Shown piece after piece: positions 1-39,410 of a stretch of 64,000 bases of DNA. Origin of the DNA: Geobacteraceae bacterium (lineage in GTDB: Bacteria; Desulfobacterota; Desulfuromonadia; Geobacterales; Pseudopelobacteraceae); assembly GCA_021286935.1 (NCBI GenBank), contig JAJTBI010000003.1:13857-77856 (forward strand), written 5' to 3'. Every line of letters starts with the position of its first letter. The stretch's first letter is position 1. The translations under genes and the position numbers were made by a program. The notes beneath the pieces were generated by a model. That model searched no databases, had not been told where the DNA came from, and saw only the letters and a list, made by a program, of their open reading frames with translations.

Positions 1-848
1 CAGGGCTGGATGCTGCTGGGTGTGATGCTGCTGCTCTTGGTCGAATCGTTCGGCGTCCTGCAATGGGCGGAGGTATCGGGTAATCCGCTGGTAGCCAAGC
101 TGGGCGTTCAGAGTGTCAACATGGAAGGGAAGGATGTCCGCTTTGGTATGGCTGCCAGCAACCTGTTTGCCGTGGCCACCACCGGTACCTCCTGCGGTGC
201 GGTCAATACCATGCACGACTGACCCCAATCGGCGGTATGATTCCGCTCTCCTTGATCCTGCTGGGAGAGATCATCTTCGGCGGGGTTGGCTCCGGGCTCT
301 ACACCATGCTGGCCTTTGCCATCATTGCGGTCTTTGTCTCCGGTTTGATGATCGGGCGTACCCCGGAGTACCTGGGTAAGAAGATCGAAGTGCGAGAGAT
401 GTGGATGTCGATTCTCGTCATTCTGACCGCTGGGGTTACGGTACTTATCCTGACCGGTATTGCCATGATCTCGAAGGATGCCGTTGCATCAATGTCCAAT
501 CCGGGCGCCCACGGCCTGTCAGAGGTGTTGTATGCCTTTGCCTCCATGGCCAACAATAACGGAAGTGCCTTTGCCGGTCTGAACGCCAACGTCAATTTCT
601 ACAACTTGTTCGGTTCCCTGGCCATGACCCTAGGTCGTTACGTACCGGCCATCGCGGTGCTGGCTATGGCGGGCTCCCTGGCGGAGAAGAAGTACGTCCC
701 GCCAAGCCTCGGCACCCTGCCTACCGATAAAGTCCCCTTTGCCCTCTGGCTGACACTGGTCATCCTGATCGTTGGAGCGCTGACCTTTTTCCCGGCTCTC
801 TCCATGGGGCCAATTGTTGAACATTTGACGATGCTGAGAGGTATCTAA
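1..848 (+). pseudogene. kdpA: K+-transporting ATPase subunit A, 3' part (5' end outside the window), interrupted by a frameshift near nt 219
   Basis: Frame 1 reads KdpA motifs ([24 protein letters not shown]) then TGA at 220-222. Frame 3 resumes with (L)TPIGGMIPL and continues through [20 protein letters not shown] and [11 protein letters not shown]. It lies directly upstream of kdpB. Confidence 0.85.
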
Positions 849-852
849 CGTC

Positions 853-2919
853 ATGTCGAAACATATTCAACAGCCAAAATCTGCTTTTGATGCAGAACTC
901 ATAAAGGGCGCCCTGCTCGACTCACTCAAGAAACTTGATCCACGCACCCTCTGGCGCAACCCGGTCATGTTATGCGTCGAGATCGCCAGCGTCATCACTC
1001 TGGTCACTTTTGCCATGTCTCTGACCGGTGCCAATACTGAACCGGCCTGGTTCACCGGTACAGTCTCCGCCTGGCTCTGGCTGACCGTGATCTTCTCCAC
1101 CTTTGCCGAGGCGCTGGCCGAGGGACGCGGCAAGGCCCGCGCCGCTTCGCTGCGCCAGAGCCGGACCGATGTAACCGCCAAGCTGCTCTCCAAACCCGAG
1201 TTTAAAAGTGCCTTCACAACTGTCGGTGCCAGTCAGCTGCGCAAGGGTGATCTGATCCTGGTAGAGGCAAATGAAATGATCGCAGGTGACGGCGATGTCG
1301 TGACCGGAGCGGCCCTGGTCAATGAGTCGGCGGTGACCGGCGAGTCAGCACCGGTAATCCGCGAATCAGGCGGCGACCGCAGCGCCGTAACCGGCGGCAC
1401 CACGGTTATTTCCAGTAGCATCATCGTCAGGATTACCGCCAATCCTGGTGAAACCTTTCTGGACAAAATGATCGGCCTGATCGAGGGGGCCAAGCGCCGC
1501 AAGACCCCCAACGAGGTGGCACTGGAGGTGTTGCTGATCGCCTTGACGGTAGTCTTCCTGCTGGTTTGCGCCAACATTAGTCCGCTCTCGATCTACAGTG
1601 TTACGGCGGCCGGTCATGGTACGCCAGTGTCGCTGACCATCCTGGTGGCGCTGTTCGTCTGCCTTGCGCCGACTACCATTGCCGCGCTGTTGCCTGCTAT
1701 CGGTATTGCCGGCATGGATCGCCTCTTTCAGAAGAATGTGATCGCCCTGTCCGGCCGGGCCATTGAGGCTGCCGGTGATGTCAACGTGCTGCTGCTGGAC
1801 AAGACCGGCACTATTACCCACGGTAATCGTCAGGCGGTGGCCTTTGTCCCAGTGGGTGGCCATACCGAACAAGAGCTGGCCGAAGCTGCCCTGATGGCGT
1901 CACTGGCTGATGAGACCCCGGAAGGACGCAGTGTGGTGATATTGGCGAAAGAGAAGCATGGCCTTGCCAGGGAGACACCGAAGAACGCCGAGGTTGTGGA
2001 TTTTAGCGCCGATACGCGTCTCTCGGGAATCAATCTGGATGGTGTGCAATTCCGTAAGGGTGCTTCGGACTCGACCATCGCGTTTGTCAGAAAACTGGGC
2101 TGCACGTCTATCGCCAGCGATCTGGATGAGGTGGTGGACAAGATCGCCCGCGGGGGCTCCACGCCGCTGGTGGTCTGCAAGGACGATCAGATCCTGGGGG
2201 TGATCAACCTGAAGGATATCGTCAAGGCCGGTATTCAGGAGCGTTTTCTGCAACTGCGCTCCATGGGGATCAAGACCGTGATGATCACCGGCGATAACCC
2301 GCTGACCGCAGCAGCCATAGCTGCCGAGGCCCAAGTGGATGACTTTCTGGCCCAGGCCAAGCCGGAGGATAAGCTGCGCCTGATCAAGGACAATCAGGAG
2401 GCCGGTTTCATGGTGGCGATGACGGGCGATGGTACCAATGATGCACCGGCCCTGGCCCAGGCAGATGTGGCGGTGGCCATGAATACCGGTACCCAGCCGG
2501 CCCGCGAGGCCGCCAATATCATTGATCTGGACTCCAACCCCACCAAGCTGCTTGATATTGTAGAGGTGGGCAAGCAGATCCTGATGACCCGTGGCAATCT
2601 GACCACCTTCAGTATCTCCAATGATATTGCCAAATATTTTGCCATCATTCCGGCGATGTTGCTTTCCATCTATCCGCAACTGGGAGTGCTGAATATCATG
2701 CACCTGGCTACTCCGATGAGTGCGATTCTCTCGGCGGTCATCTTCAATGCCATTATCATCCCGTTGCTGGTGCCGCTGGCCCTGAAGGGGACGAAATTCC
2801 GTCCGATGCCGGCTGAAAAACTGCTGATCCATAACCTGCTGATCTACGGCGTAGGCGGGATAATCGCCCCGTTTGTCGGGATCAAGATCATTGATATGGT
2901 TGTTGGGCTGATGGTTTAG
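853..2919 (+). CDS. kdpB: K+-transporting P-type ATPase subunit B
   Basis: TGES motif, DKTGTIT phosphorylation site, [16 protein letters not shown] hinge, typical KdpB length. Confidence 0.98.
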
Positions 2920-2940
2920 GTAACTAATAGGAGAAAAACA

Positions 2941-3507
2941 ATGAAAGATATAAGACCGGCAATCCTTATTTTTATCATTTTTACCGTCATCTGCGGCGGT
3001 ATCTATCCGGCAGTGGTCACCGGAGTGGCCTATGCCCTCTTCCCCAAACAGGCTGCAGGAAGTTTCATTACGGACAAGGGCGGCAAGGAGATCGGTTCCA
3101 ATCTGATCGGCCAGCCCTTTGCCGACGCGAAATATTTTTGGCCACGCCCATCCGCTACGTCAGACTTCGGCTTCAACGCCATGGCTTCTGGCGGCTCCAA
3201 TGCCGGGCCGACCAATCCTGCTTATCTGCAGACGGTAGGCGATCGGGTCAAGGCACTCCGCGATACCGGCGTGACCGGGAGGGTTCCGGCCGACCTGGTG
3301 CAGGCCTCGGCAAGTGGACTTGATCCTCACGTCACCCCCGAGTCGGCCCTGCTGCAGGTGCCACGCGTTGCCAAGGCGCGTGGCGTATCTGAAAAGACGA
3401 TAATAAAAGCCGTTGCAGAGGCTACCCAAGGTCGCCAGTTGGGCTTTTTTGGTGCCCCAAGGGTTAATGTGCTTGAATTGAACGTGAAACTGGATGCATT
3501 GAAATGA
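2941..3507 (+). CDS. kdpC: K+-transporting ATPase subunit C
   Basis: N-terminal TM helix, GSxLIGQ, YFWPRPSA, ASGGSN and SASGLDPH motifs; SD GGAGA upstream. Confidence 0.97.
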   Translation: MKDIRPAILIFIIFTVICGGIYPAVVTGVAYALFPKQAAGSFITDKGGKEIGSNLIGQPFADAKYFWPRPSATSDFGFNAMASGGSNAGPTNPAYLQTVGDRVKALRDTGVTGRVPADLVQASASGLDPHVTPESALLQVPRVAKARGVSEKTIIKAVAEATQGRQLGFFGAPRVNVLELNVKLDALK

Positions 3508-3531
3508 TCAGCGTCTGGAGGGAATTATCAT

Positions 3532-3810
3532 ATGAAACTCGTAGTGGGAATCATCTATACGAGAGATATGCTCAAACTCGGCGATGCCCTTGAGGCAATG
3601 GGGCTGATCGTCCATGAAACCGCTTATGAAGGTCACAGGGCTGTGCAGTACAGGGTATTTGAAGGTGTTGCATACATGTACCGTTTGCTCAACAGAGTTA
3701 AGATACGCACCGTCGTCAGCGATGAATTGGTCGGCACGTTGATGGATACTCTGCATAGCTTCGGTAACTGCAAATTTGTTATTACTCCTCAGCAGATTTG
3801 TCCTGCCTGA
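3532..3810 (+). CDS. PII-like (GlnB-fold) small protein
   Basis: Aligns by eye with GlnB: MKLVVGII, FEGVAYM (cf. YRGAEYM), RVKIRTVVSDE (cf. KVKIEIVVPDD), GNCKFVI (cf. GDGKIFV). SD GGAGG upstream. Confidence 0.65.
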   Translation: MKLVVGIIYTRDMLKLGDALEAMGLIVHETAYEGHRAVQYRVFEGVAYMYRLLNRVKIRTVVSDELVGTLMDTLHSFGNCKFVITPQQICPA

Positions 3811-3861
3811 GTAATGGTTGTAAGCACGCAAAGATCGTAAAACGAAAATTAAGGAGATGAT

Positions 3862-4656
3862 ATGAAACGAGTAAAAATAGTGGCAGCAGCAGCGGCAATA
3901 GTGGCAGTTGCATGCGGTGCGGCAATGGCAACCCCCACTGGCCAGATATGGATCCCGTCACCCGATGCCAAGGGATTCAAGGATGTTACGGTCAACTTGA
4001 CCTATAATGGACGCTTCTCGCAGAAGGCCGATGCAAACGCCAGCTATTTCGATGCAGGAGTGGTTGTCGGCGTACTCCCGTTTGAGAACCTGAAGCTTGA
4101 GATTGGCGTAGATTATCTGACTTCCAACCTACAGAATGACAACTTCGGTGATAGTCACCCAATCTATTTTAACGCCAAGTTGGCTACCTCTGAAGATGCC
4201 TTCGGCATCAAGGGGATGCCTGCTTTTGCCGTAGGTGCGTTCAATCTTGGCACCTACGACAAGCCGGAGCTCGCCCGCTCTACCCGCCAAAATATCATCT
4301 ACGGCCTGGCGGGCAAAACCTTTCCGGTAATCGGTCGCCTGTCGGCTGGCGGCTACTACGGTTCGGAGCGGGCACTTGCTAACGGTACCAATCTGAAAAA
4401 TATGAACAGCGGTGTGATGGCCTCTTGGGATCGGACTATCAGCGAGGTTTCGGATAAATTGTGGATGGGGGTTGACTACATGAGTGGTAACAACGCCAAC
4501 GGTGCCCTGTCGGTGGGCGGCTCTTGGGCTTTTACAAAAAATATTTCCCTGCTGATGGGAGTGATCACCTACAACCCGTTCTACAAACCATCACAGGGTG
4601 AGGCCATTCCGGGCGGCAAGCCGGCCTACACGACGCAACTGTATATCAATTTTTAG
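3862..4656 (+). CDS. Exported protein, probable outer-membrane beta-barrel/porin
   Basis: Ala-rich signal peptide, amphipathic beta-strand pattern, C-terminal TQLYINF (Bam-type terminal Phe); SD AAGGAG. Confidence 0.7.
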   Translation: MKRVKIVAAAAAIVAVACGAAMATPTGQIWIPSPDAKGFKDVTVNLTYNGRFSQKADANASYFDAGVVVGVLPFENLKLEIGVDYLTSNLQNDNFGDSHPIYFNAKLATSEDAFGIKGMPAFAVGAFNLGTYDKPELARSTRQNIIYGLAGKTFPVIGRLSAGGYYGSERALANGTNLKNMNSGVMASWDRTISEVSDKLWMGVDYMSGNNANGALSVGGSWAFTKNISLLMGVITYNPFYKPSQGEAIPGGKPAYTTQLYINF

Positions 4657-4677
4657 AATGCCGATTGCGCTTTTCAA

Positions 4678-4713
4678 TTCAATGTGGGGGCGGTTCGCCG
4701 CCCCCACATTGAA
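4678..4713 (+). terminator. Perfect 16-bp stem hairpin (terminator-like or mRNA-stabilising)
   Basis: TTCAATGTGGGGGCGG-TTCG-CCGCCCCCACATTGAA; no U-tract follows on the + strand. Confidence 0.55.
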
Positions 4714-4802
4714 GATATACGTGTAGGTAGAACTGATTGTGATATGAGAAGAAGTAACAAAGACGAGTAAGAGTCAGTATCAAGCAGACAGGAGAAATCT
4801 CT

Positions 4803-5135
4803 ATGCGACTCGCTTTCATTATTATAACGTCCCTGTTTATCGCCTCTGCCGCTTGGGCGGTATCCTACCCGCAACATGTTCCTCCGGCAGTGTTTGAAGA
4901 ATTCATCCCTATAGATGATATCAAGCTCTGTGATATTCACGGTACAAGCCCCGCACCATCCATCCCTAAAACGTGGAAACTGATCAGCGTATCTACTGGT
5001 GAAAAATCAAATGCCAGCAATTTGTGGTTCCAGGACACGGATGGTTCCATCTATCTGTTGCAAGGGTTTACGGCGCAAAATAAGTTTGTTATTCATAAGA
5101 ATGTGTATAAATTACCTACAAAATTAGCGTTTTAA
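4803..5135 (+). CDS. Small exported hypothetical protein
   Basis: Signal peptide ending ASAAWA; SD GGAGA; ends 9 nt before kdpD. Confidence 0.7.
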   Translation: MRLAFIIITSLFIASAAWAVSYPQHVPPAVFEEFIPIDDIKLCDIHGTSPAPSIPKTWKLISVSTGEKSNASNLWFQDTDGSIYLLQGFTAQNKFVIHKNVYKLPTKLAF

Positions 5136-5144
5136 GGAAAGCTA

Positions 5145-7853
5145 ATGACCAATCCCGACAACGACATACGCCCCACCCCGGAGGCGATGCTGAAGCTGGC
5201 CCAGGCGGAAGAAGCTCAATCTGAGCTTGGCAAGCTGAAGGTGTTTCTTGGCTATGCCGCTGGCGTTGGCAAGACCTATGCCATGCTTGAGGCGGCACGT
5301 AAACGGAAGGCTGATGGCCGTGACCTGGTGGTGGGCTATGTGGAGTCCCACGGTCGTAGTGAGACCGACGCCCTGCTGGAGGGACTTGAGCTGGTCCCCC
5401 GCATGCAGCTTTCCTATGCCGGTGTCACACTGCCCGAGATGGATCTGGATGCCATTCTGGCCCGCAAGCCACAGATTGTGCTGGTGGATGAACTGGCCCA
5501 CAGCAACGTGCCTGGTTCACGCCATGAAAAACGCTGGCAGGATGTTGAGGAGTTGCTGGCAGCCGGTACGGATGTCTATACCACGGTCAACATCCAGCAT
5601 TTTGAGAGTCTGAACGATGTAGTAGCCCAGATCACCGGTATCACTGTGCGGGAGACCGTGCCGGACCGGCTGCTGGATATCGCGTTTGAGATCAAGCTGA
5701 TCGATCTTCCGCCGGAAGACCTGCTGCAGCGGCTGCATGAAGGCAAGATCTACATCCCGGATCAGGCTGCCAAGGCGATTGAGAAGTTCTTCCGTCCCGG
5801 CAACCTGATGGCGCTACGGGAACTTTCCCTGCGCCGTACCGCTGCCCGGGTGGATGACCAGATGCGGGCCTATATGGAGACCCAATCCATTACCGGTCCC
5901 TGGCCTACGGCAGAACGGCTGTTGGTCTGCGTCAGCGGCAGTCCGTTCAGTGAACAGTTGATCCGGGCCACCCGCAGGCTGGCTGATGAGTTGAAGGCTC
6001 CCTGGCATACGGTCTATATCGAGACACCGGGCAGTGACCGCCATACCAGGGAAAACCGTGAGCGGGTCTGGCAGGATCTGCGTTTTGCCGAAGGGTTGGG
6101 GGCCCAGGTGGCCACCATTACCGCCACCTCGGTGCCGGAAGCGGTGGCTGAGTATGCGGCACGCCATAATGTGACCCGCATCGTGGTGGGTAAGCCAACC
6201 CATAGCCGTTGGTATGAACTGCTGCACCCCTCGATTGTTGATCAGATCATCCGCCGCAGTAGCAGCAGTGATGTCTTTGTGGTGCGTATCAATACCGGGG
6301 GGGCAACGCCGCAGCCACAGAAGGATGTTGTGCGCGGCCATCACCTGCATCCCTGGGGTTATTCACTGGCTGGCGGGCTGGTGGCCGTTGCAACTATCTG
6401 CTGCTGGCTGGTCAGCCGTTTTCTGGAACCAACCAACCTGGTGATGATCTATCTGCTGGCAGTGGTGGTGGCAGCGGTTCGGCTGGGACGCCGGCCAGCC
6501 ATGCTGACCGCCTTTCTGGGGGTATTGGCCTTTGACTTTTTCTTTGTACCGCCGCACCTGACCTTTGCCGTGGCAGACACCCAGTACCTGATCACCTTTG
6601 CGGGTCTGTTTATGGTGGGGATAGTAATCAGTAATCTGGTGGCCCGGTCGCGGGAACGGGCCGATGTGATCCGGGTCAGGGAGATCCAGACCGCCTCGCT
6701 GTATTATTTGAGTCGTGATCTGGCTGCGGCTGCTGATATTGCCAAGGTGCTGTCGTCGGTGGTCAGGAATGTGGAGGAGGCACTGAACGCCAAGGCAGTC
6801 ATGTTACTGCCGGAAGGTGAACGGCTTGAACTGCTGGCAACCAGTGATGGACTTGCTTTGGATAGCAAGGAACAGGCGGTGGCAGACTGGTGCTTCCGTA
6901 ATCGGCATCCGGCCGGACGTGGCACTGATACCCTGATTTCGGCGGAGCTGATTTATCTGCCGCTGCAGACACCTGCCAGCCAGCTGGGGGTGTTGGGGGT
7001 GCGGATGGACGATGAATATGACTACCGTTCCCAGGAGAGCCGCCGTCTGCTGGATGCCTTTGCCACCCAGGCAGCCATGGCCATTGAACGGGTCCAGTTT
7101 TCCCGTCAGGCTGAACAGGCCCAGATCCTTCAGGCGCGGGAGAATCTGGAACGTGCCCTGCTGAACTCCATCTCCCATGATCTGCGTACTCCGCTGGTCT
7201 CGGTAACCGGGGTACTCTCCAGCCTGCGTGATGAGGGGATGCATCTGAGCAATCAGGCCCGTCGTGAACTGCTGGATACTGCCTGTAGTGAGGCTGAACG
7301 CCTGAACCGCTTTGTGGGCAACCTGCTGGATATGACCCGGATTGAGGCCGGGGCCATCAGGCTGAACCTTGAGTTGTGCGACATTCAGGATCTGGTGGGC
7401 TGTGCCATGGCAGCCATCAAGCCGCGTGTCGGAAGTCATCTGATAACGATCAGCCTTCCCGATGACCTGCCCATGGTGCTTATGGATCTGGTACTGATGA
7501 CCCAGGTGCTGGTGAATCTGCTCGATAATTCGCTAAAATATTCCTTGCCTGAGCGCGCTATTGAAATCAGCTCCCATCAGGAACATGGCTGGTTGGTGCT
7601 AATGATCGCTGATCATGGTCCCGGTGTGCCGGAGCAGGATCTGAAACGGGTGTTTGACAAGTTTTACCGGATCCCTGTGCCGGAGGGGGTGGGTGGCACC
7701 GGTCTGGGGCTTTCGATCTGCAAAGGGATTGTTGAGGCCCACGGCGGAACCATCAGGGCTGAAAACCGTGCCGAGGGAGGGTTGGTGATAAAGATCCGTC
7801 TCTCGCTGGCCAAAACAGAACACCAGGAAAAGGAAGAGGGGCATGATCGCTGA
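5145..7853 (+). CDS. kdpD: K+-sensing histidine kinase
   Basis: GYAAGVGKTYAML N-domain, USP domain, four TM helices, GAF, SHDLRTPL H-box, GTGLGL G-box. Confidence 0.98.
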   Translation: MTNPDNDIRPTPEAMLKLAQAEEAQSELGKLKVFLGYAAGVGKTYAMLEAARKRKADGRDLVVGYVESHGRSETDALLEGLELVPRMQLSYAGVTLPEMDLDAILARKPQIVLVDELAHSNVPGSRHEKRWQDVEELLAAGTDVYTTVNIQHFESLNDVVAQITGITVRETVPDRLLDIAFEIKLIDLPPEDLLQRLHEGKIYIPDQAAKAIEKFFRPGNLMALRELSLRRTAARVDDQMRAYMETQSITGPWPTAERLLVCVSGSPFSEQLIRATRRLADELKAPWHTVYIETPGSDRHTRENRERVWQDLRFAEGLGAQVATITATSVPEAVAEYAARHNVTRIVVGKPTHSRWYELLHPSIVDQIIRRSSSSDVFVVRINTGGATPQPQKDVVRGHHLHPWGYSLAGGLVAVATICCWLVSRFLEPTNLVMIYLLAVVVAAVRLGRRPAMLTAFLGVLAFDFFFVPPHLTFAVADTQYLITFAGLFMVGIVISNLVARSRERADVIRVREIQTASLYYLSRDLAAAADIAKVLSSVVRNVEEALNAKAVMLLPEGERLELLATSDGLALDSKEQAVADWCFRNRHPAGRGTDTLISAELIYLPLQTPASQLGVLGVRMDDEYDYRSQESRRLLDAFATQAAMAIERVQFSRQAEQAQILQARENLERALLNSISHDLRTPLVSVTGVLSSLRDEGMHLSNQARRELLDTACSEAERLNRFVGNLLDMTRIEAGAIRLNLELCDIQDLVGCAMAAIKPRVGSHLITISLPDDLPMVLMDLVLMTQVLVNLLDNSLKYSLPERAIEISSHQEHGWLVLMIADHGPGVPEQDLKRVFDKFYRIPVPEGVGGTGLGLSICKGIVEAHGGTIRAENRAEGGLVIKIRLSLAKTEHQEKEEGHDR

Positions 7854-8541
7854 AAGTACGTCGGGTAATCTCCCGCGAGTCCTGATCATCGACGATGAAG
7901 TGGCCATCCGTAAGTTTCTGCGTACGGTTTTATCCAGTGAGGAATTTCTGCTATACGAGGCAGAAAATGCCCATACCGGTCTCTCGCTTACGGCTGCAGT
8001 CCGGCCGGATGTGATTTTGCTTGATCTAGGTTTGCCGGATCTGGACGGCATAGAGGTAATCAAGCGGGTCCGAGACTGGTCGCAGGCGCCGATTATCGTG
8101 CTGTCGGTGCGCGAACGGGAAGAAGACAAAATTGCTGCCCTGGATGCGGGGGCTGATGATTACCTGACCAAGCCGTTTGGTGTTGGCGAGCTGCTGGCCC
8201 GTATCAGGGCTGCCATGCGTCGTTTGCAGCAGGAATTGCCGGAACCGGTCTTTACCAGTGATGATCTTGAGGTGAATCTGGAGCTGCGCCGGGTAACGGT
8301 TAGGGGGAACGATATCCAGCTTACCCCCACTGAGTATGATCTGTTGAAACTGTTGGTCAGCCAGGCCGGCAAGGTCCTGACCCACCGTCATATTCTGAGC
8401 AAGATCTGGGGGCCATCCCATCTGGAACAGCCCCATGTGCTGCGGGTTAATATCAGTAACCTGCGCCGTAAAATTGAAGTTGATCCTGCGCAACCACGTC
8501 ATATTACAACAGAGCTTGGTGTAGGCTATCGTCTCGTCTGA
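7843..8541 (+). CDS. kdpE: OmpR-family response regulator
   Basis: REC domain (IDDE, LLDLGLPD, GADDYLTKPF) plus winged helix; overlaps the kdpD stop. Confidence 0.95.
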   Translation: MIAESTSGNLPRVLIIDDEVAIRKFLRTVLSSEEFLLYEAENAHTGLSLTAAVRPDVILLDLGLPDLDGIEVIKRVRDWSQAPIIVLSVREREEDKIAALDAGADDYLTKPFGVGELLARIRAAMRRLQQELPEPVFTSDDLEVNLELRRVTVRGNDIQLTPTEYDLLKLLVSQAGKVLTHRHILSKIWGPSHLEQPHVLRVNISNLRRKIEVDPAQPRHITTELGVGYRLV

Positions 8542-8555
8542 GTAACGCAGGTTGC

Positions 8556-8603
8556 CTTGACGCCTTCTTGATACCTCTTGATCTGATCTTGATGCCCTCT
8601 TGA
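8556..8603 (+). promoter_or_regulatory. Five phased CTTGA direct repeats, candidate response-regulator (KdpE) binding array
   Basis: CTTGA at 8556, 8567, 8577, 8588 and 8599 (periods 11, 10, 11, 11 bp), between kdpE and the next transporter gene. Confidence 0.6.
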
Positions 8604-8652
8604 TACGCAGCCTGCTACGGTGGTGAAAACTCACTGTGAGGGCGCGCCATTC

Positions 8653-10635
8653 ATGGAACCAGCGGAACAACATGCAGGACAGGGATTTTTTGCCAAGTGT
8701 ATCAGGGCTATCTTCGGTGCCCCCAAACATCTGAAAGATACCAACCTCTTTCACAAGATGGCGCTGATTCCGATTCTGGCCTGGGTCGGGCTGGGGGCTG
8801 ACGGCCTCTCGTCATCGGCCTATGGACCGGAAGAGGCATTCCGGGCACTGGGAAACCATACCTACCTGGCTGTTCTGCTGGGGCTTGCCACTGCCCTGAC
8901 GGTTTTTATCATCTCCTACGCCTATTCCCGCATCATTGAACATTTTCCCCACGGTGGCGGCGGCTACATTGTGGCTACCCATATGTTGGGCGAGAAGGCC
9001 GGGGTGGTCTCCGGCAGTGCCCTGCTGGTGGACTATGTGATGACCATCACCATCTCCATCGCCTCCTGTTGTGACGCGCTGTTCAGCTACGTTCCCCAGC
9101 AGTATCACCACTATAAGGTGCCGGTTGCCTGTGTCCTGACCCTGCTGCTGATCATCCTCAATGTCCGTGGGGTGAAGGAATCCATTACGGTTTTGGCTCC
9201 CATTTTTGCGATCTTTGTGGTCAGTCACCTGATCATGCTGCTGTATGGCGTCTTCACCCATACTGAGCGGTTTGCACCGCTGGCTGGTGAGTTCTCAACC
9301 GGCATCAGGCATGATCTCTCCAGTATAGGTCTGTTTGGTATCCTGCTGCTGTTTCTGCGGGCCTACTCCCTGGGGGGTGGTACCTACACCGGTATTGAGG
9401 CGGTTTCAAACGGTCTGCAGATCATGCGTGAGCCGCGAGTCCAGACCGGCAAGCGTACCATGCTCTATATGGCCTCCTCACTGGCCTTTACTGCCGGGGT
9501 ACTGTTCCTCTGCTATGCCCTGGTCGGCATTAAACCGGTGGAGGGCAAGACCCTTAATGCGGTGTTGGCTGATGGGCTGTTTGCCAATTGGCCCATGGGC
9601 AGCAGCATCGCCTTTATTACCATTTTTTCCGAAGGTGCCCTGCTGCTGGTGGCAGCCCAGGCCGGTTTTGTGGATGGACCGCGGGTGATGGCCAATATGG
9701 CGATTGATTCCTGGTTTCCTCACCGCTTTGCCGCCCTCTCGGTTCGCCTGACCATGCGCAATGGCATCCTGTTGATGGGGATTGCGGCTATTGCCCTGCT
9801 GTTTTACACCAGGGGATCGGTATCGGCTCTGGTGGTAATGTATTCCATCAATGTCTTTGTCACCTTCTCGCTGTCACAGTTGGGGATGTCAAAATTTTTC
9901 ATTGAGCGTAGAAAGGAAGACCCACAATGGATGCGGCATCTTTCTGTCCACCTGGTGGGGCTGGTGTTGTGTGTGACCATCCTGGCTATTACGGTCTTTG
10001 AAAAATTTACCGAAGGGGGCTGGATGACGCTTCTGATCACCTCGGTGGTAATCGGGCTCTGTTACCTGATCAAAGGGCACTACAAGCGGGTACGGCTCGG
10101 CATGGCCGATCTGGACCAAAGCCTGCTGGATGTACCGGTCAGTGCCCACGGCGAGCCGCCCGCCATCGATCATAACGCATCTACCGCAATCCAGCTGGTT
10201 TCCGGCTACACCGGGTTCGGTGTGCATACCCTTTTTTCCATCCTTTCCACCTTTCCCAAAACCTATAAAAACGTGATCTTCGTCTCAGTGGCCATGATTG
10301 ATTCCGGTAGTTTCAAAGGGGCTGAAGAGCTTGAGGCGTTGGAACAGTCCGTCCGGTTCGGACTAGAACAGTACGTGTCCCTGGCCCGTAAACTTGGTTT
10401 TGCCGCCGCTTACCGCATGGCAGTGGGGACCGATGTGGTTGAAAATGCAACCGAGTTGTGTCAACAGATTGCCGAAGAGTTTCCCCGCTCAACGGTCTTC
10501 ACCGGACAGCTCACCTTCCGTTTGGAAAAATTCTATCACCGTCTGCTACACAACGAGACCGCCTTTGCCATCCAGCGCCGCCTGCAGTGGGCTGGCCTGA
10601 CCACGGTGATCATGCCGATCAGGGTGCGTACCTAA
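8653..10635 (+). CDS. KimA/YdaO-like APC-superfamily K+ transporter
   Basis: GADGLSSSAYG (cf. KimA SDALSSVAYG), GGGGYIVA, TGIEAVSNG, about 12 TM helices and a soluble C-terminal domain. The ATG at 8653 is preferred over the GTG at 8620. Confidence 0.85.
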   Translation: MEPAEQHAGQGFFAKCIRAIFGAPKHLKDTNLFHKMALIPILAWVGLGADGLSSSAYGPEEAFRALGNHTYLAVLLGLATALTVFIISYAYSRIIEHFPHGGGGYIVATHMLGEKAGVVSGSALLVDYVMTITISIASCCDALFSYVPQQYHHYKVPVACVLTLLLIILNVRGVKESITVLAPIFAIFVVSHLIMLLYGVFTHTERFAPLAGEFSTGIRHDLSSIGLFGILLLFLRAYSLGGGTYTGIEAVSNGLQIMREPRVQTGKRTMLYMASSLAFTAGVLFLCYALVGIKPVEGKTLNAVLADGLFANWPMGSSIAFITIFSEGALLLVAAQAGFVDGPRVMANMAIDSWFPHRFAALSVRLTMRNGILLMGIAAIALLFYTRGSVSALVVMYSINVFVTFSLSQLGMSKFFIERRKEDPQWMRHLSVHLVGLVLCVTILAITVFEKFTEGGWMTLLITSVVIGLCYLIKGHYKRVRLGMADLDQSLLDVPVSAHGEPPAIDHNASTAIQLVSGYTGFGVHTLFSILSTFPKTYKNVIFVSVAMIDSGSFKGAEELEALEQSVRFGLEQYVSLARKLGFAAAYRMAVGTDVVENATELCQQIAEEFPRSTVFTGQLTFRLEKFYHRLLHNETAFAIQRRLQWAGLTTVIMPIRVRT

Positions 10636-10741
10636 CTGTTTGCCTAACAAACAGATCCCGCCAGCTTATATTCTCTAGCAACCTCTGGGCTGCACCAAAA
10701 ACAAGAGGTGTTGCCAAACGCCTTCCTGTGCTCAGGAACAC

Positions 10742-10769
10742 TTGACAGCTTTGAGAAAAAGAGTATCTT
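10742..10769 (+). promoter_or_regulatory. Sigma70-type promoter for the riboswitch-kup transcript
   Basis: TTGACA-N16-TATCTT just upstream of the aptamer. Confidence 0.45.
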
Positions 10770-10782
10770 CCGCCACATAAGA

Positions 10783-10920
10783 CAGCAGCCGAGATTCATC
10801 GCCACACTATGTGCGATGGATGCGGGGGACCCATTCAACTGGGGCGTATCGGGAGGTATCCCGAGGAGGACTTTCAACCTCTAGCCCGTCAGCTAACCTC
10901 GTAGGCATTTGGAAGGGCAT
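10783..10920 (+). ncRNA. c-di-AMP riboswitch (ydaO/yuaA class)
   Basis: Class signature segments GCGGGGGACCCA...GGGGCGTATC and CCCGTCAGCTAACCTCGTAGGC, in the leader of a K+ transporter gene. Confidence 0.9.
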
Positions 10921-10930
10921 CGGACAGGAC

Positions 10931-10966
10931 AAACGTCTTGCGGCCATTGCCGGGGGCGTTTTTTTC
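10931..10966 (+). terminator. Intrinsic terminator forming the riboswitch expression platform
   Basis: AAACGTCTTGCGGC/GCCGGGGGCGTTT stem followed by a T-tract, about 35 nt before the kup start. Confidence 0.65.
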
Positions 10967-11000
10967 TTCCGGCCCTGTGTGTTGGTGGAAAGGGGCAACT

Positions 11001-12821
11001 ATGCAACAGCATGACGCTGAAAGTTTCTGGGGTGGTGTCATAAAGTCGATGGGTCTGGTGTTTGGCGACATCGGTACCAGCCCGATTTATACCCTGACGG
11101 TTATCTTTGCCATTACTAAACCGACCCCGGACAACATCTTCGGAATCGTCTCCCTGGTTTTCTGGACCCTGGTAATTTTGGTTCATCTTGAATATTCCAT
11201 TCTGGCTATGTCTCTCTCCCGCAAGGGGGAGGGGGGCACTATCGTGCTGAAGGAAATTCTGACCAGAATGCTGCAGCCAGGTAAAGGGTTAGCTCTGATC
11301 GGTATTCTTTCATTTCTGGGGGTTGCCCTCTTGCTGGGAGACGGGGTGATTACACCGGCGATCTCAATCCTTTCAGCTGTTGAAGGGATGGTGCTGATTC
11401 CCGGTCTTGAATCTACCCGTCAAGGGGTGCTGATCCTGATTGCAGCTATCATCGCAATCGGCCTGTTTATCTTTCAGGACAAGGGTACTGACAAGGTGGC
11501 CAAGGCCTTTGGGCCGATCATGATCATCTGGTTTGGGGCACTGACGGTCTCCGGTCTGGTCGGCATCAGTTCCCATCCGGGTATCCTCAAGGCCTTAAGT
11601 CCCCACTATGCCATCAACTTTTTGCTGCACCACGGGATTGCAGGTTTTTTTGTACTGTCCGAGGTTATCCTCTGTGCCACCGGTGGCGAAGCATTGTATG
11701 CTGATATGGGACATCTGGGGCGTAGGCCGATCCGCCATGCCTGGTACTTCGTCTTTGTTGCCCTGGTGATCAACTATCTAGGCCAGGGCGCGTATCTGCT
11801 TAATAATCCTGATGCCAAGAACATCCTGTTCAGTATGGTAAAATGGCAGGCTCCCCTGTTGTATATCCCGTTTCTGATCCTGACCATTACTGCCACGGTG
11901 ATCGCCTCCCAGGCACTGATCAGTGGCGTTTTTTCCATTGTCTATCAAGGGATCACTACCCGTATTCTGCCGCTTCTGAAGGTTGACTATACCTCTACCC
12001 ACCTCAAGTCGCAGATCTACATCGGCTCGGTCAACTGGTTGCTGCTGGGGCTGGTGATCATGATCATGCTGATCTTCCAGAAGTCCGAAAATCTGGCTGC
12101 CGCCTACGGTCTGGCCGTAACCGGCACCATGACCATCACCGGTATCATGATGGTAACCATCTTCAGCAGGACCAAGAAGAAGTGGAAGGTGCCGGTAGCC
12201 CTGTTTGTTACGCTGATGGATGCTATTTTTCTGGTTTCAAACCTCTACAAACTGCCCCACGGTGGCTATTGGTCGCTGATCCTGGCTTCGGTGCCGCTGA
12301 TCACCATTCTGGTCTGGACCAAGGGACAGCGGGCTCTATACATGGCCTTGCGCCCCTTGGAGCTGGATACCTTTCAGCTGGCCTATGAACAGATCTACAA
12401 TAAAGGCAGAAATATTCCCGGCACCGGCCTGTTCTTTGTCAAAGAGTACAGTGTGGTGCCGCCGTATGTGGTGCACTGCATTATCCGTAGTAACATCATC
12501 TATGAGCGCAATGTCTTTATCTCCATCGTGCGGACAGATGAGCCCTATGGCCTGCAAAGCGAGTTGAAGACCGGCATTGCCAAAGGGCTGGATGCCTTTG
12601 AGGTTTATGCAGGTTATATGGAGCATATTGCCATTGAGGAGCTGTTGCACCAGAACGGGGTGCAGGAGAAGGTTATCTTCTACGGTATTGAGGATATTGC
12701 CACGACGAACCCGATCTGGAAGTTCTTCTCGGTTGTAAAGAAGCTGACCCCCAACTTTGTGCAGTTTAACAAGCTGCCGGCGGCGAAGCTGCAAGGGGTG
12801 GTGACCCGCGTCGAGATGTAG
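11001..12821 (+). CDS. kup: KUP/HAK/KT potassium transporter
   Basis: GDIGTSPIY, GEGGT, LLGDGVITPAISILSAVEG, GGEALYADMGH, AAAYGLAVTGTM. The ATG at 11001 has SD AAGGGG; the ORF-track start overlaps the terminator. Confidence 0.96.
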   Translation: MQQHDAESFWGGVIKSMGLVFGDIGTSPIYTLTVIFAITKPTPDNIFGIVSLVFWTLVILVHLEYSILAMSLSRKGEGGTIVLKEILTRMLQPGKGLALIGILSFLGVALLLGDGVITPAISILSAVEGMVLIPGLESTRQGVLILIAAIIAIGLFIFQDKGTDKVAKAFGPIMIIWFGALTVSGLVGISSHPGILKALSPHYAINFLLHHGIAGFFVLSEVILCATGGEALYADMGHLGRRPIRHAWYFVFVALVINYLGQGAYLLNNPDAKNILFSMVKWQAPLLYIPFLILTITATVIASQALISGVFSIVYQGITTRILPLLKVDYTSTHLKSQIYIGSVNWLLLGLVIMIMLIFQKSENLAAAYGLAVTGTMTITGIMMVTIFSRTKKKWKVPVALFVTLMDAIFLVSNLYKLPHGGYWSLILASVPLITILVWTKGQRALYMALRPLELDTFQLAYEQIYNKGRNIPGTGLFFVKEYSVVPPYVVHCIIRSNIIYERNVFISIVRTDEPYGLQSELKTGIAKGLDAFEVYAGYMEHIAIEELLHQNGVQEKVIFYGIEDIATTNPIWKFFSVVKKLTPNFVQFNKLPAAKLQGVVTRVEM

Positions 12822-12944: not shown

Positions 12945-12998
12945 GTGAGAAACCGTCCGTGCTATCATCTTAGAACTGAAGCCGGAAATAAGATGTAG

Positions 12999-13034
12999 AA
13001 CGCCCCGCCGGAAACTCCGGCGGGGCGTTTTTTG
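12999..13034. terminator. Intrinsic terminator, probably bidirectional, between convergent kup and pilT
   Basis: AACGCCCCGCCGGA-AAC-TCCGGCGGGGCGTT followed by a T-tract. Confidence 0.8.
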
Positions 13035-13061: not shown

Positions 13062-14132
13062 TTATGCCGGTGGCGCCTGCGGCAGGTACTGCTCAAACAT
13101 CTTCTTGTCGATGGCGCATTTGTGCGCCTCTTCCGGGTTTACCTGTTTGGTCTTGAGCAGATCCAGCAGGTGCTGGTCCATCAGCTGCATGCCGTCTTTC
13201 TTGGCGGTCTGGATGATGGAGGGGATCTGAAAGGTCTTGCCTTCGCGGATCAGGTTGGCAATGGCCGGGGTGCCCAGCATGATCTCCAGGGCAGCCACCC
13301 GTCCGTGACCATCGGCAGTTTTGAGCAGTTGCTGGCAGACCACCCCTTTTAAGGATTCGGAGAGCATGGTGCGGACCTGATCCTGGGATTCCTTGGGAAA
13401 GACATCAATGATCCGGTCAATGGTCTTGGCAGCCGTATTGGTGTGCAGGGTGCCGAAGACCAGGTGGCCGGTCTCGGCGGCGCTCATGGCCAGTTGGATC
13501 GTCTCCAGATCCCGCATCTCTCCCACCAGGATGATGTCCGGGTCTTCCCGCAGGGCAGCCCGCAGGGCCGAGGCGAACGAGTTGGTGTGGGCTCCGATCT
13601 GGCGCTGGTTCAACAGCGACAGTTTGTTTTCATGGATGAACTCCAGCGGGTCTTCCAAGGTCAGGATATGTTCCTTGCGGGTGGCGTTGATCAGGTCGAT
13701 CAGGGCTGCCAGGGTGGTGGATTTGCCGGACCCGGTCGGGCCGGTCACCAGTACCAGCCCCTTTTTGAACTGGGTCATCCGGCGTACTCCATCCGGCAGG
13801 TTCAGCTGGTCCGCTGAAAGGATTATGGCCGGGATGATCCTGAAGACCGCTGCCACACCGCGGTGGGTCATCATGATGTTGCCACGGAAGCGGGCCAGGT
13901 CAGGCACCGCATAGGCAAAATCCAGGTCGTTGGTGGTCTCAAATTGGGCCTTCTGCTCCTCGTTCAGAATCTCATACAGGATCGGGAGCAGTTCTTCGTG
14001 GGAGAGCGGTTTGAACTGCAGGTGCACCATCTCGCCATGCTGCCTGAAAATGGGTGGGTTGCCGGATGAAAGGTGCAGGTCTGATGCCCCTTGCTCCTTC
14101 ATCATTTTGAATAAAGCATCTATTTTGGCCAT
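13062..14132 (-). CDS. pilT: Type IV pilus retraction ATPase PilT family
   Basis: GPTGSGKS Walker A, DPDIILVGEMRD Walker B, TLHT His-box, AIANLIREGK motif. Confidence 0.93.
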   Translation of the reverse strand: MAKIDALFKMMKEQGASDLHLSSGNPPIFRQHGEMVHLQFKPLSHEELLPILYEILNEEQKAQFETTNDLDFAYAVPDLARFRGNIMMTHRGVAAVFRIIPAIILSADQLNLPDGVRRMTQFKKGLVLVTGPTGSGKSTTLAALIDLINATRKEHILTLEDPLEFIHENKLSLLNQRQIGAHTNSFASALRAALREDPDIILVGEMRDLETIQLAMSAAETGHLVFGTLHTNTAAKTIDRIIDVFPKESQDQVRTMLSESLKGVVCQQLLKTADGHGRVAALEIMLGTPAIANLIREGKTFQIPSIIQTAKKDGMQLMDQHLLDLLKTKQVNPEEAHKCAIDKKMFEQYLPQAPPA

Positions 14133-14156
14133 GGTAGCTTGTCTCCATGTAATTGA

Positions 14157-15809
14157 TTATTGAATTACAGCAGCAATGAACTCTTCCGGTGATACCGCTC
14201 CCGCCTTTAGCAGAGCCTCACCCTCCGCCTTGATTCCGCGATACCCATCGGCATTCAGTCCGGCAATGAAGCTGCTTCCATCAGAAGCGGCATCAAAACG
14301 GGCGTGCAATTCACGGTCAAAGCAGATGCAGTTGGTTAGGAAAATCCGATCACTTACTCCGGTAAAATTGCAGTGCGGACAGCCTGTTGCATGATACAGT
14401 TCTGCAGGTGGTGGCTGCAGCTGAAGACCGAGTAGTTCCTGTTGCGGCAGGGTGGCCGTCTGTCTGCAGGAGGGGCAGAGGAGCTGGATACCTTTGAATG
14501 ATACAATGCCGGAAAGAAACGGGGTCAGAAAGGCGTTGCGTTGACGAAAGCGGATCAGGTGATCACACAGATTGCGGGTGCCGCGGATATCCATCCCCAC
14601 CAGCACCAGTTTGCCCCGCATGGCAGCCCGTGCCGCAGCGGTAAATGGCTCCAGAGCGGTGCCGTCTTCAATCACCAGAATATCCGGGCCATGCTCAAGG
14701 CTGTCCATAATCAGCCGTCCACGGCTCGCCTCTGATTCTGGTAGCGGGATACGGGGGAACTGTTTGAGCATTCTCCCTGGTTCATTGCCAAGAATCAGTA
14801 CAGACCTGCCGGTGGTGTCCAGCTCCTCCAGTAGCAGATCCATAAAACGACAACGTTCCTGCAACGAGCGGGATGCAAACAGTATCAGGCCGTGGCGTAC
14901 GGTTATGAGGCGGGTAAACTGTTCTCTCTGGAATGACGGCAGTTGTAACCGGGACAGAGTGTGCGGAATGTTGGCCGTTATATGCCGACGGATGGTGATG
15001 TAGTCTCCCTGTCTGCCAGGCATCAACAGAACCTGAAAACAAAGTTCCCGTTCATGATGGCGAAAGCTGATGCAACCGCTAAGTGAGGGTTCACTGGAGA
15101 ACGGTAGTGTAGCCGCTTTGCGGATCAGGCTGCAGACAGTGGTATAGTGATCAGCTGCAAGCATTCCCAACTCATGGTTGGTTGCGCCACTGCGGGCGGT
15201 GATGGCGATTACCGTATCCAAAGGCATAAAAGAACAGGAACTTAACTGGTGCTGAATGCTGTAGGTAAGCAGGTTGTTCAGCAGCTGTTGTCCGCTGAGA
15301 TCTGAGTTGATGGAGGAGAGCTGTTCGGCTGTAAATTGACCTGAACTAAAACCAAGTTGTTCTTCTTTACTCAGGCCGTAGCACTGGTCAAGCATTTCGT
15401 TTATTTCACGGGCCAGGGCAACCGAGAGGTTGATCCGGCAACCTGACGCCTCGGCCGCAGCGGCAACAGCTTCTTTGCTGAGTGGGTCCGCAATGGCAAT
15501 AGAGAGCTCATCTCCTGCTTTTATCAGTGGTATCAGTTGATGTGTTCTGCAGATATTTGCAGGAATAAGCGTCAGGGCATCCGGGTCAATCATCTCGCGT
15601 TTAAGACGGATGTAAGGAATATCCAACTGATTGGAGAGTGCCCAATCAATATCCTCCTGGGTGACGATGCCCAGAATAACCAGTGCTTCACCAAAGCGGC
15701 ATCCGCTACGTTGCTGTTCTTCAAGTGCGGCAGTGATGTCGGCATCACTGATGATACGTGAGTTATAGAGGATGGCACCCAGCGTGCCTTCCCTGACATT
15801 GATCGGCAT
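14157..15809 (-). CDS. PilB/GspE/MshE-like protein with an N-terminal MshEN-type domain and a degenerate ATPase
   Basis: RFGEALVILGIVTQEDIDWALSNQ motif and CPSC/CPHC zinc motif are present; the Walker A position reads FASRSLQERC. Confidence 0.8.
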   Translation of the reverse strand: MPINVREGTLGAILYNSRIISDADITAALEEQQRSGCRFGEALVILGIVTQEDIDWALSNQLDIPYIRLKREMIDPDALTLIPANICRTHQLIPLIKAGDELSIAIADPLSKEAVAAAAEASGCRINLSVALAREINEMLDQCYGLSKEEQLGFSSGQFTAEQLSSINSDLSGQQLLNNLLTYSIQHQLSSCSFMPLDTVIAITARSGATNHELGMLAADHYTTVCSLIRKAATLPFSSEPSLSGCISFRHHERELCFQVLLMPGRQGDYITIRRHITANIPHTLSRLQLPSFQREQFTRLITVRHGLILFASRSLQERCRFMDLLLEELDTTGRSVLILGNEPGRMLKQFPRIPLPESEASRGRLIMDSLEHGPDILVIEDGTALEPFTAAARAAMRGKLVLVGMDIRGTRNLCDHLIRFRQRNAFLTPFLSGIVSFKGIQLLCPSCRQTATLPQQELLGLQLQPPPAELYHATGCPHCNFTGVSDRIFLTNCICFDRELHARFDAASDGSSFIAGLNADGYRGIKAEGEALLKAGAVSPEEFIAAVIQ

Positions 15810-32088: not shown

Positions 32089-32291
32089 ACGTAACGTACT
32101 CCATCAAAAGAGAGTTTTAAGAGTATAGGCTGCTGCGAAAGGCGGCAATCACTAACAGAAACTCTTGCTGCTGTCAAGAGCAAAGCTGGCAGATCAGGAC
32201 TGGTCAGGGCTAACAAGATCTTGTCTGTTTGCGTTATAACTACTTTGTGATACAACGTTATCACTAACTTAATGAGTTTTTGGGGTCGTCT

Positions 32292-38738: not shown

Positions 38739-38852
38739 TTCCAACTCAAGGCGGTATCTTCGTTGGCTCGTCATCGGCTCCTCAACGTACTGTGTGTACG
38801 CCTGCGTCGCCGAGTTCCTCGCCGCCTTGATCTCATCCTTGATTTGGAATCA
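38736..38852. repeat. ~120 bp palindromic REP/MITE-like element, copy 2 (inside the pel operon)
   Basis: TGATTCCAACTCAAGG...CCTTGATTTGGAATCA inverted ends; highly similar to 16950-17073. Confidence 0.85.
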
Positions 38853-38887
38853 AGAGTGCTCTAACAGCAATAACGAAGGAGGAATCC

Positions 38888-39409
38888 ATGAAACAACTAC
38901 TGCTACTGGTTGCCGGTCTGATATTGCTGGCCGGTTGTTCAACACTGCACCAGGGGATGCGTGAGGCGGTGCCGCAAGCTGAGACCTGGGCCGTGCTGCC
39001 GTTTGTAAACAATACCGAGACCCCCTTTGCCGCCGAGCGTGCAGAGGCGATCACCACGGCACTGTTGTATGCCCGGGGGATACAGCGGGTGGTGACGGCC
39101 CCCCTTGATGCTGCTGCAGATGCCGAAGCTCTGCCGGATCGCGGCTTGAAGAGACGCGAGGCAGGGATGGAGTGGGCAAAGAAACAGAATATCCGCTATG
39201 CCCTGGTTGGGACGGTGACGGAGTGGCGTTACAAGGTGGGGCTGGATGGAGAACCGGTGGCCGGTATGACGCTGCAGTTGCTTGATCTGCAGGATGGCAA
39301 GGTGCTCTGGTCCGGCAGTGCCGGAAAGAGCGGCTGGAGCCGTGAGGCGGTCAGCGCCGTGGCTCAGCAGGTGCTTGGGCAGTTGGTAAGCACCATCGTC
39401 CTGCGCTAG
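38888..39409 (+). CDS. pelC: Pel outer-membrane lipoprotein
   Basis: LAGC lipobox, WAVLPF, EWRYKVGLDGEP motif. Confidence 0.93.
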   Translation: MKQLLLLVAGLILLAGCSTLHQGMREAVPQAETWAVLPFVNNTETPFAAERAEAITTALLYARGIQRVVTAPLDAAADAEALPDRGLKRREAGMEWAKKQNIRYALVGTVTEWRYKVGLDGEPVAGMTLQLLDLQDGKVLWSGSAGKSGWSREAVSAVAQQVLGQLVSTIVLR

Positions 39410-39410
39410 C

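Follow-up and report, generated by a model that had tools for sequence, protein, structure and literature searches.

A 64-kb stretch of DNA from a Geobacteraceae bacterium (all of it referred to here as the window) carries at positions 1-12821, with all genes on the + strand, a potassium (K+) uptake cluster in which kup lies behind a riboswitch of the cyclic di-AMP (c-di-AMP) class and the gene of a KimA-like transporter behind a predicted operator of the KdpE type. We consider it probable that this is the main K+ acquisition locus of the organism and that it is controlled in two layers, the KdpD/KdpE system (KdpDE) acting, as we infer, on kdp and kimA, and a c-di-AMP riboswitch acting on kup, the latter being recognised at the sequence level and its mechanism proposed by analogy with Bacillus subtilis. 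The genes follow in the order kdpA (3' part), kdpB, kdpC, an open reading frame (ORF) for a PII-like protein, a barrel and a secreted protein gene, kdpD, kdpE, kimA, the riboswitch and kup. A preliminary description of this DNA had listed Kdp, a KimA-like transporter, Kup, a ydaO riboswitch, a KdpD USP domain and a PII-like gene, and all of them were found on the + strand of 1-12821. Its reading of the ensemble as a compact c-di-AMP K+ regulon stood for kup, which has the riboswitch, but not for kimA and kdp, which are without it and share a direct-repeat operator predicting KdpE control. The evidence used for the organism of the window consists of sequence, predicted structures, the loci of relatives (designated L followed by a number) and cited literature.

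The whole window was searched with Rfam and the sole match was an aptamer of the ydaO/yuaA class located upstream of kup (10777..10922, +), which scored 76.3 bits with RF00379 (gathering score 38, E 6e-16) and covered model positions 1-134 of 134. A ydaO riboswitch inside a K+ importer cluster of a diderm, as previously claimed, was thus recovered, the diderm character being given by the taxonomy of the relatives. On one strand, a sigma-70-like promoter (TTGACA-16-TATCTT, 10742..10769, 10/12 matches in a scan) ends seven bases ahead of the aptamer, which is followed by an intrinsic terminator serving as predicted expression platform (10931..10965) and by the kup ATG at 11001. The terminator consists of a hairpin (10931..10961) with a 13-bp stem and one bulge, the 3' arm of which runs into seven U (10959..10965). 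The ATG at 11001 was retained as the start of kup, with GGAAAGGGG upstream as Shine-Dalgarno sequence, whereas the TTG at 10938 given in the ORF list was rejected because it overlaps the terminator. The 606-aa product (11001..12821, +), a K+ transporter of the KUP/HAK/KT type, exceeded the Pfam thresholds for K_trans (522.5 bits) and K_trans_C (79.2 bits) and matched solved plant HAK5-type transporters with E 2e-69.

In Trichlorobacter thiogenes ATCC BAA-34, the closest relative among one-genome-per-species GTDB contigs, the kup promoter is identical, and promoter, aptamer and terminator as a whole differ very little from those of the window. In L010, the terminator ahead of another kup has been swapped for a non-homologous hairpin, which is likewise followed by U7. 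Across 19 homologous copies of the aptamer, 90.8% of base-pair cells hold standard pairs, a value that none of 500 shuffles reached, and covariation was seen in one helix with changes on both sides at 7 of its 10 pairs. A custom covariance model was then run over 51 KimA-encoding loci. The riboswitch was found directly upstream of KimA-like genes in 16 of them, which belong to Geobacteraceae, Desulfobacteraceae, Ca. Electronema, Opitutaceae and other Verrucomicrobiota, and ahead of kup in three cases, namely the window, T. thiogenes and L010; with this model it was absent from the remaining loci of the 51. Strong terminators follow the kimA-type riboswitches for which downstream sequence was inspected. 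No riboswitch was detected near the kdp operons of the relatives searched, nor on kimA or kdp in the window. Since the riboswitch precedes K+ importers in related loci, these data indicate that c-di-AMP control of K+ import is real in this lineage.

The B. subtilis kimA leader follows the logic of an OFF switch (PMC5575661) and, by analogy, the kup leader may act as a transcriptional OFF switch in which high c-di-AMP terminates transcription before kup. When the fold was computed with the right arm of the terminator withheld, the CGGC of the left arm paired with GCCG at 10788-10791, which belongs to the 5' strand of the outer aptamer helix, and this pairing is a plausible antiterminator. Taken together, the gating of kup, and of kup only, by a riboswitch of the c-di-AMP class is solid at the sequence level. 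Of the hallmarks named in the preliminary description, this RNA is the one that points directly to c-di-AMP.

The gene situated between kdpE and the riboswitch (8653..10635, +) encodes, from its ATG, a 660-aa K+/H+ symporter of the KUP family with APC fold. A phmmer search of the PDB matched it to B. subtilis KimA 6s3k (E 3e-61), residues 48-495 aligning to 23-461 with a short C-terminal match in addition, and the K+-coordinating and gating residues D36, Y43, D117, T121, S125, T230, E233 and Y377 (list from PMC10284832 and bioRxiv 10.1101/2023.07.05.547876) are all identical in this alignment. By these comparisons the permease is a true KimA homologue, and its best relatives are found in Geobacteraceae and Pelobacteraceae. 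KimA itself has been assigned to the KUP family (PMC6994465); of the three K+ uptake families announced previously, three importers do stand side by side, but they represent Kdp plus two branches of the KUP family.

The 111-nt spacer between kdpE and kimA contains five TTGA(T/C) boxes, at 8557, 8568, 8578, 8589 and 8600, spaced 10-11 bp, and this direct-repeat array (8557..8605, +) is the predicted KdpE-type operator/promoter of kimA. The layout in Geobacteraceae has boxes at 0/11/32/43, TTGAY-N6-TTGAY-N16-TTGAY(-N6-TTKAY), the fourth box often being TTTAT. It was observed upstream of kimA in twelve loci (L001, L002, L003, L005, L008, L010, L012, L013, L014, L016, L030 and L055), including some where kimA is far from kdp (L002, L005 and L013), and upstream of the kdp operon in seven (L001, L010, L012, L030, L052, L055 and L057). 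Operator and riboswitch are both present on kimA in L003, L014 and L016. The strict three-box pattern gave 22 matches in 965 kb, always in gene orientation, and 20 shuffles gave one match in total, so that about 0.05 would be expected. E. coli KdpE binds TTTATA and TTTACA 5 bp apart, the leading TT being invariant across genera (PMC3264566), and the corresponding rule of TT-led 6-bp direct repeats with 5-bp spacers holds upstream of kdp in the seven related loci. The KdpE of the window (7843..8541, +), a response regulator of the OmpR/PhoB family with E 1.5e-72 to E. coli KdpE 4kny, conserves the arginines of the recognition helix (LR...LR.K) and the Thr of the wing. Moreover, kimA adjoins kdp or kdpDE genes in many loci, including those of Opitutaceae and Sulfuricellaceae. 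Since the same operator layout is found on kimA and kdp and the gene neighbourhoods agree, we infer that the KdpE regulon of Geobacteraceae includes kimA. No array of this kind accompanies the kup promoter.

Some features of relatives touch on this regulon. In two Sulfuricellaceae-like metagenome-assembled genomes (MAGs; L036 and L046, 11987-14151), kimA is followed by a short KdpD-like gene restricted to the N-terminal part and then by kdpE, which represents another link between KimA and KdpDE outside Desulfobacterota; no kdp pump was found within 10 kb of kimA in these two loci. A four-box TTGAY copy in L057 (870-906) stands in front of small ORFs and of a Na_H_Exchanger (CPA-type) gene and may be part of the same regulon. 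In L052 (3173-3385), L055 (3300-3533) and L057 (3187-3420), the predicted KdpE operator is separated from kdpA by a conserved ORF of 70-77 aa (MKAYLFD...), which occupies the place expected for kdpF (~29 aa); the window starts too late to show such an ORF.

In the two-layer control that we favour, KdpD/KdpE would sense K+ limitation, and phosphorylated KdpE would bind the TT-led 6-bp direct repeats, with their 11-bp spacing, that would replace the -35 region of the kdp operon and of kimA. The kdp pump, its passengers (the PII-like protein, the outer-membrane channel and the secreted protein) and KimA would then be induced together. The kup gene would be transcribed from its own constitutive-looking promoter through the c-di-AMP riboswitch. 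High c-di-AMP, which corresponds to K+ sufficiency in B. subtilis, would lock the aptamer, and the hairpin with U7 at 10931-10965 would terminate transcription before kup; at low c-di-AMP, GCCG 10788-10791 would pair with the CGGC of the terminator left arm and allow read-through into kup. The c-di-AMP itself would come from a cyclase whose gene lies in another part of the genome.

Several points weigh against this scheme. The minimum-free-energy fold of the leader has aptamer-like helices and terminator together, and the antiterminator is a suggestion drawn from thermodynamics. Four metagenome runs labelled as 'RNA-Seq' yielded only fragmented mixed-strain contigs with no usable transcript ends. 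The operator was assigned to KdpE by adjacency and half-site resemblance, another regulator of the OmpR family could bind it, and TTGACA also resembles a -35 hexamer. A Pfam search of 42 window ORFs, which covered the plausible ones of 150 aa or more and some shorter ones, revealed no DisA_N/diadenylate cyclase (DAC) protein. Finally, a frameshift in kdpA, if real, would leave the Kdp arm non-functional in this strain.

With respect to the source of c-di-AMP, translation of the window and 57 loci in all six frames gave no DGA...RHR motif pair, and a Rec-PAS-GGDEF protein (28926-30203, -) considered as a Hypr enzyme was rejected, as it has a canonical GHDEGD. DAC proteins are reported for Geobacter sp. 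and Desulfobulbus sp. (PMC4686210) and are said to be common in Deltaproteobacteria (PMC7288161). In vitro, c-di-AMP is also a product of Hypr-GGDEF enzymes from Geobacter (PMC6456294), so the absence of a DAC alone would not refute c-di-AMP signalling. The lineage had been presented as one where such signalling is little studied, which is fair for physiology; the DACs of Geobacter, Desulfobulbus and Deltaproteobacteria had already been published (PMC4686210, PMC7288161).

The kdpA gene is represented by its 3' part (1..848, +; K+-binding subunit of the Kdp ATPase), in which the loss of 4 nt after position 218 brings a TGA (219-221) into frame. The reading continues in another frame (237..848) for the last 203 aa, which score 280 bits with Pfam KdpA. 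Three-frame translations and comparison with three relatives (L052, L001 and L057) located the lesion: the relatives read GACTCCCTGACC and the window reads GACTGACC, CTCC being missing. CTCC is present in closely related metagenome contigs from runs X2, X3 and X4, and the contigs of run X1, the best match to the window, break at 208-276, across the lesion site. Either the lesion is specific to this strain or it reflects an error of assembly. The kdpB, kdpC, kdpD and kdpE genes are intact and high-scoring, with kdpB (853..2919, +; P-type ATPase catalytic subunit) reaching 970 bits with TIGR01497 and carrying E1-E2_ATPase and Hydrolase domains, and kdpC (2941..3507, +) reaching 241 bits with Pfam KdpC and 233 bits with NF001454. 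Both kdpF and the kdp promoter fall outside the window.

The influence of c-di-AMP might extend beyond kup. In a regulon fully centred on c-di-AMP, this nucleotide would act on the riboswitch and also as a direct inhibitory ligand of KimA and Kup (at their C-domains), of KdpD (at its USP domain) and of the PII-like protein, which would be an analogue of DarA/PstA; such a regulon is compatible with, and additive to, the two-layer explanation, but we regard it as rather unlikely. KdpD (5145..7853, +; 865 bits with NF007793) contains seven Pfam domains, among them KdpD-N, Usp, DUF4118, GAF, HisKA and HATPase. The USP domain, which had been called a c-di-AMP hallmark, was rejected as such for being generic, since KdpD proteins generally possess it, including that of E. 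coli. Geobacter KdpD was retrieved by Moscoso et al. with the S. aureus USP domain as query, and the S. aureus motif, SXS-X20-FTAXY, was set against RXXXR-X8-WXAVY of E. coli (PMC4686210); the c-di-AMP motif has been refined to (A/G/C)xSxSx2N...(Y/F), with Asn249 essential for binding of c-di-AMP but not of AMP (PMC8214093). The USP domain of the window reads CVSGSPFS-...-RATRR-X8-WHTVY, which gives 4/5 c-di-AMP motif positions, on an E. coli-like beta2 stretch, versus 2/5 in E. coli KdpD. The elements (A/G/C)242-x-S244-x-S246 and Y/F271 are present in the window and in every Geobacteraceae KdpD examined, but the position of the specificity determinant Asn249 is occupied by Ser in the window and by Ser or Gly in relatives; binding of c-di-AMP by this domain is possible. 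For KimA, the c-di-AMP pocket comprises R337, P479, V506, H579, N580, Q581 and S582, and Thr at 582 also occurs in S. aureus KimA and in KUPs (PMC10284832). The C-domain of the window protein keeps F568, H579, N580 and W592, with E in place of Q581 and T in place of S582, its C-terminal LHNETAF corresponding to LHNQSAF of B. subtilis; on the other hand, R337 aligns with His, an Arg being found one residue later. Furthermore, LHN(E/Q/D)T is not diagnostic, because it is equally conserved in beta-, gamma- and alpha-proteobacterial KimA homologues without riboswitch. In general, these proteobacterial lineages are not known to have c-di-AMP. An attempt to align the Kup C-domain with the KimA pocket was abandoned, as no convincing alignment was obtained and the relevant C-terminal segment is shorter than in E. 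coli Kup. As for the PII-like protein, also claimed as a hallmark of DarA/PstA type, its AlphaFold2 model (pLDDT 78) adopts the PII fold and superposes on L. monocytogenes PstA 4rwx (TMq 0.67, rmsd 1.5), but Foldseek ranks GlnB-type chains and L. monocytogenes PstA together, and the fold alone cannot separate them. PstA proteins have a short T-loop and a long B-loop; in the model, 14 residues (32-45) form the T-loop and 4 residues (76-79) the B-loop, which is the canonical PII architecture. No match to PF06153 (CdAMP_rec) was obtained even at E<=10, no PstA/DarA chain was retrieved in PDB sequence or profile searches at E<=10 and no SbtB chain in the profile search. In the profile alignment, a 6-residue deletion takes out the B-loop nucleotide motif (TGxxGDGKIF), and the protein ends after beta4, without the C-terminal segment. 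An identity as DarA was rejected on sequence and loop architecture, and direct binding of c-di-AMP to KimA, the KdpD USP domain, Kup or the PII-like protein is, from the sequence, no more than a possibility.

Doubt may also be cast on the regulator of kimA. The TTGAT-repeat operator could be bound by another regulator of the OmpR/PhoB family, or be mere UP/-35 architecture, kimA being then independent of KdpDE, an explanation that we find improbable. The TTGAT half-site core does differ from TTTATA/TTTACA of E. coli, L002, L005 and L013 show the operator upstream of kimA with no kdpDE within 10 kb, L052 has a second histidine kinase/response regulator pair directly after kdpDE, and the operator copy of L057 precedes small ORFs and a Na_H_Exchanger gene. 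However, kdp operons in seven loci are preceded by the identical four-box layout, and kdp is what KdpE canonically activates; the fourth box, frequently TTTAT, comes near the E. coli half-site, and 6-bp boxes, 5-bp spacers and leading TT fit the KdpE rule (PMC3264566). It is very improbable, finally, that the riboswitch is a relic or senses another ligand and that the clustering of transporters is devoid of regulatory meaning. The ydaO motif was once proposed as ATP-sensing (cited in PMC5575661), but the aptamer matches RF00379 along the whole model with a score double the gathering threshold, the window and T. thiogenes have promoter, aptamer and terminator in common at an identity of only 87.6% over window positions 5145-12821, the 19 copies covary, and the RNA is repeatedly tied to K+ importers in several phyla.

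The passengers of the kdp operon deserve a separate description. The PII-like ORF (3532..3810, +) encodes a truncated protein of 92 aa, which matched GlnB in the PDB with E 6e-4 (phmmer) and scored 17 bits with Pfam P-II (PF00543), below the gathering score of 25. Its family comprises 45 clusters of ~93 aa, with Cys80 invariant and Cys90 near-invariant, and the family profile matched GlnB/GlnK chains of the PDB with E 4e-8. The protein is a divergent, truncated offshoot of the GlnB type, not a DarA/PstA. Six family members were looked up, and at each of the nine places returned the gene immediately follows kdpC; it is a conserved resident in a subset of Geobacteraceae kdp operons, and a signal-transduction role dedicated to Kdp would be a natural guess. 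The 110-aa secreted protein (4803..5135, +) has a signal peptide ending in AWA and no Pfam or NCBIfam match, and homologues with 60-100% identity precede kdpD in 8/8 PII-bearing kdp operons that reach that far. The 264-aa predicted outer-membrane beta-barrel (3862..4656, +), present in a subset of the PII-bearing operons, has a signal peptide, 12 predicted strands and a C-terminal Phe. Its AlphaFold2 model (pLDDT 70, 12 strands) was matched by Foldseek to OmpF/OmpC, to the COG4313 channel 4rl8 and to FapF (probability 1.0, TM 0.4-0.47), and more than 700 Geobacteraceae homologues were found, none with a Pfam domain; it is a putative small channel co-expressed with Kdp.

The PII-like protein and the secreted partner of ~107-110 aa, joined in some operons by the barrel, could constitute an undescribed Kdp accessory module which, with the 4/5 USP motif and the KimA C-domain, would form a multi-layer c-di-AMP/KdpDE network wired unlike that of Firmicutes, a proposal that we hold to be quite doubtful. 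The role of the PII-like subunit in such a module would be to inform KdpD or KdpB of an intracellular signal, which might be an adenine nucleotide, the redox state via the Cys pair, or c-di-AMP. Two of the operons with the PII-like gene hold extra canonical P-II genes, and such genes occur in Geobacteraceae kdp operons in L058 (1345-2389) and L059 (2763-3233), one of which also has a regulator of the Response_reg-ANTAR type. It seems that kdp operons in Geobacteraceae have acquired PII proteins repeatedly. In L021 (2106-3146, -), a barrel homologue (47% identity) that is not part of a kdp operon has a distant PII-like ORF as its neighbour (30% identity).

The source organism is, from its relatives, a Trichlorobacter-like Geobacteraceae diderm. 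The Gram-negative host proposed at the outset was borne out by the taxonomy of the relatives, by the predicted 12-strand barrel at 3862..4656 and by the PelB and OmpA barrels encoded beyond the cluster. Metagenomes of wastewater, sludge and biofilm contain near-identical sequence, and an exact-sequence look-up of the window KimA (from a GTG start) and KdpC returned no record. KimA, KdpD and KdpE are 96%, 94% and 95% identical to those of T. thiogenes, respectively, but KdpC and Kup only ~70%. Positions 1-7752 are 91-94% identical to the MAG contig L052, which has the three inserted genes (PII-like, barrel and secreted protein) without kimA or kup downstream. Positions 5145-12821 correspond, at the 87.6% identity given above, to T. 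thiogenes, where the order is kdpABC-kdpDE-kimA-riboswitch-kup without the three inserted genes. By these sequence identities, the locus is a mosaic of an L052-like left part and a T. thiogenes-like right part.

Outside the K+ cluster, a strong terminator hairpin (12997..13031, +; 16-bp stem with 11 GC pairs, then a T run) ends the kup unit and faces a convergent pilT-like gene. Two T2SSE-family ATPases, PilT-like and PilB/MshE-like (with MshEN domain), are encoded there (13062-15809, -), convergent on the kup terminator. A complete Pel exopolysaccharide operon (32280-44600) includes a PelA-like GH114 protein, PelB (TPR and barrel), PelD (GAF and degenerate GGDEF), the PelF glycosyltransferase and PelG. 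A 2566-aa repeat protein (52482-60182), with 8x DUF7933, SdrD_B, DUF11 and SpaA-like domains, is probably a giant surface adhesin and comes after an OmpA-family gene and a CHASE2 kinase/response regulator pair.

Control of K+ uptake by c-di-AMP has been worked out almost entirely in Firmicutes, and the present data extend the same riboswitch class to importers of the KimA and Kup types in two diderm groups, Desulfobacterota and Verrucomicrobiota. The locus is a largely expected variant of a known scheme, that of K+ importers controlled by c-di-AMP riboswitches. What goes beyond the descriptions found in the literature is that kimA shares a KdpE-type operator with kdp, that operator and riboswitch are swapped or stacked among relatives, and that a PII-like module sits in the kdp operon. 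Among relatives, the riboswitch is interchangeable with, or stacked on, the KdpE-type operator, which offers a testable map of how two signals, K+ limitation outside the cell (via KdpDE) and K+ status inside it (via c-di-AMP), might be divided among three importers. The hosts are metal-reducing and dechlorinating Geobacteraceae of environmental importance. The locus also draws attention to an uncharacterised PII-like family, all the places found for it being inside kdp operons.

Compared with known systems, the kup leader resembles the B. subtilis kimA (ydaO) and ktrAB leaders in having the same RF00379 class and an intrinsic terminator, a predicted OFF switch on a K+ importer, and B. subtilis has a KimA whose K+-site residues are all found in the window homologue. 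Unlike in B. subtilis, the riboswitch of the window is on kup, kimA has a response-regulator operator, and the host is a diderm of Desulfobacterota also equipped with Kdp and KdpDE. A c-di-AMP riboswitch in a Kdp-containing locus is shared with B. thuringiensis, in which it precedes kdpFABC and replaces the missing KdpDE, whereas the window has KdpDE (PMC6488665). With S. aureus KdpD (PMC4686210, PMC8214093), the window protein shares Cys/Ala-x-Ser-x-Ser in the beta1-alpha1 loop and the beta2 Tyr, but it has Ser for Asn249 and a WHTVY beta2 of the E. coli type (RXXXR-X8-WXAVY). The PII-like protein has in common with DarA/PstA (PF06153) the ferredoxin-like PII fold and small size, and differs in its lack of sequence relationship, long T-loop, very short B-loop, kdp-operon setting and conserved Cys pair. 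Lactococcus lactis KupA/KupB, which are inhibited by c-di-AMP (summarised in PMC10284832), are likewise canonical KUPs in a lineage with reported DACs, but in the window control is seen at the RNA level only and the C-terminal Gln/Thr pocket segment is shortened. Lastly, the E. coli KdpE operator at kdpFABC (PMC3264566) and the array on kimA share TT-led 6-bp direct repeats 5 bp apart, read in both cases by an orthologous KdpE with a winged helix of the OmpR/PhoB type if our assignment is right. The array departs from its E. coli counterpart in a TTGAT core instead of TTTAT/TTTAC, in four half-sites (five in the window) at 0/11/32/43, and in that it also precedes kimA.

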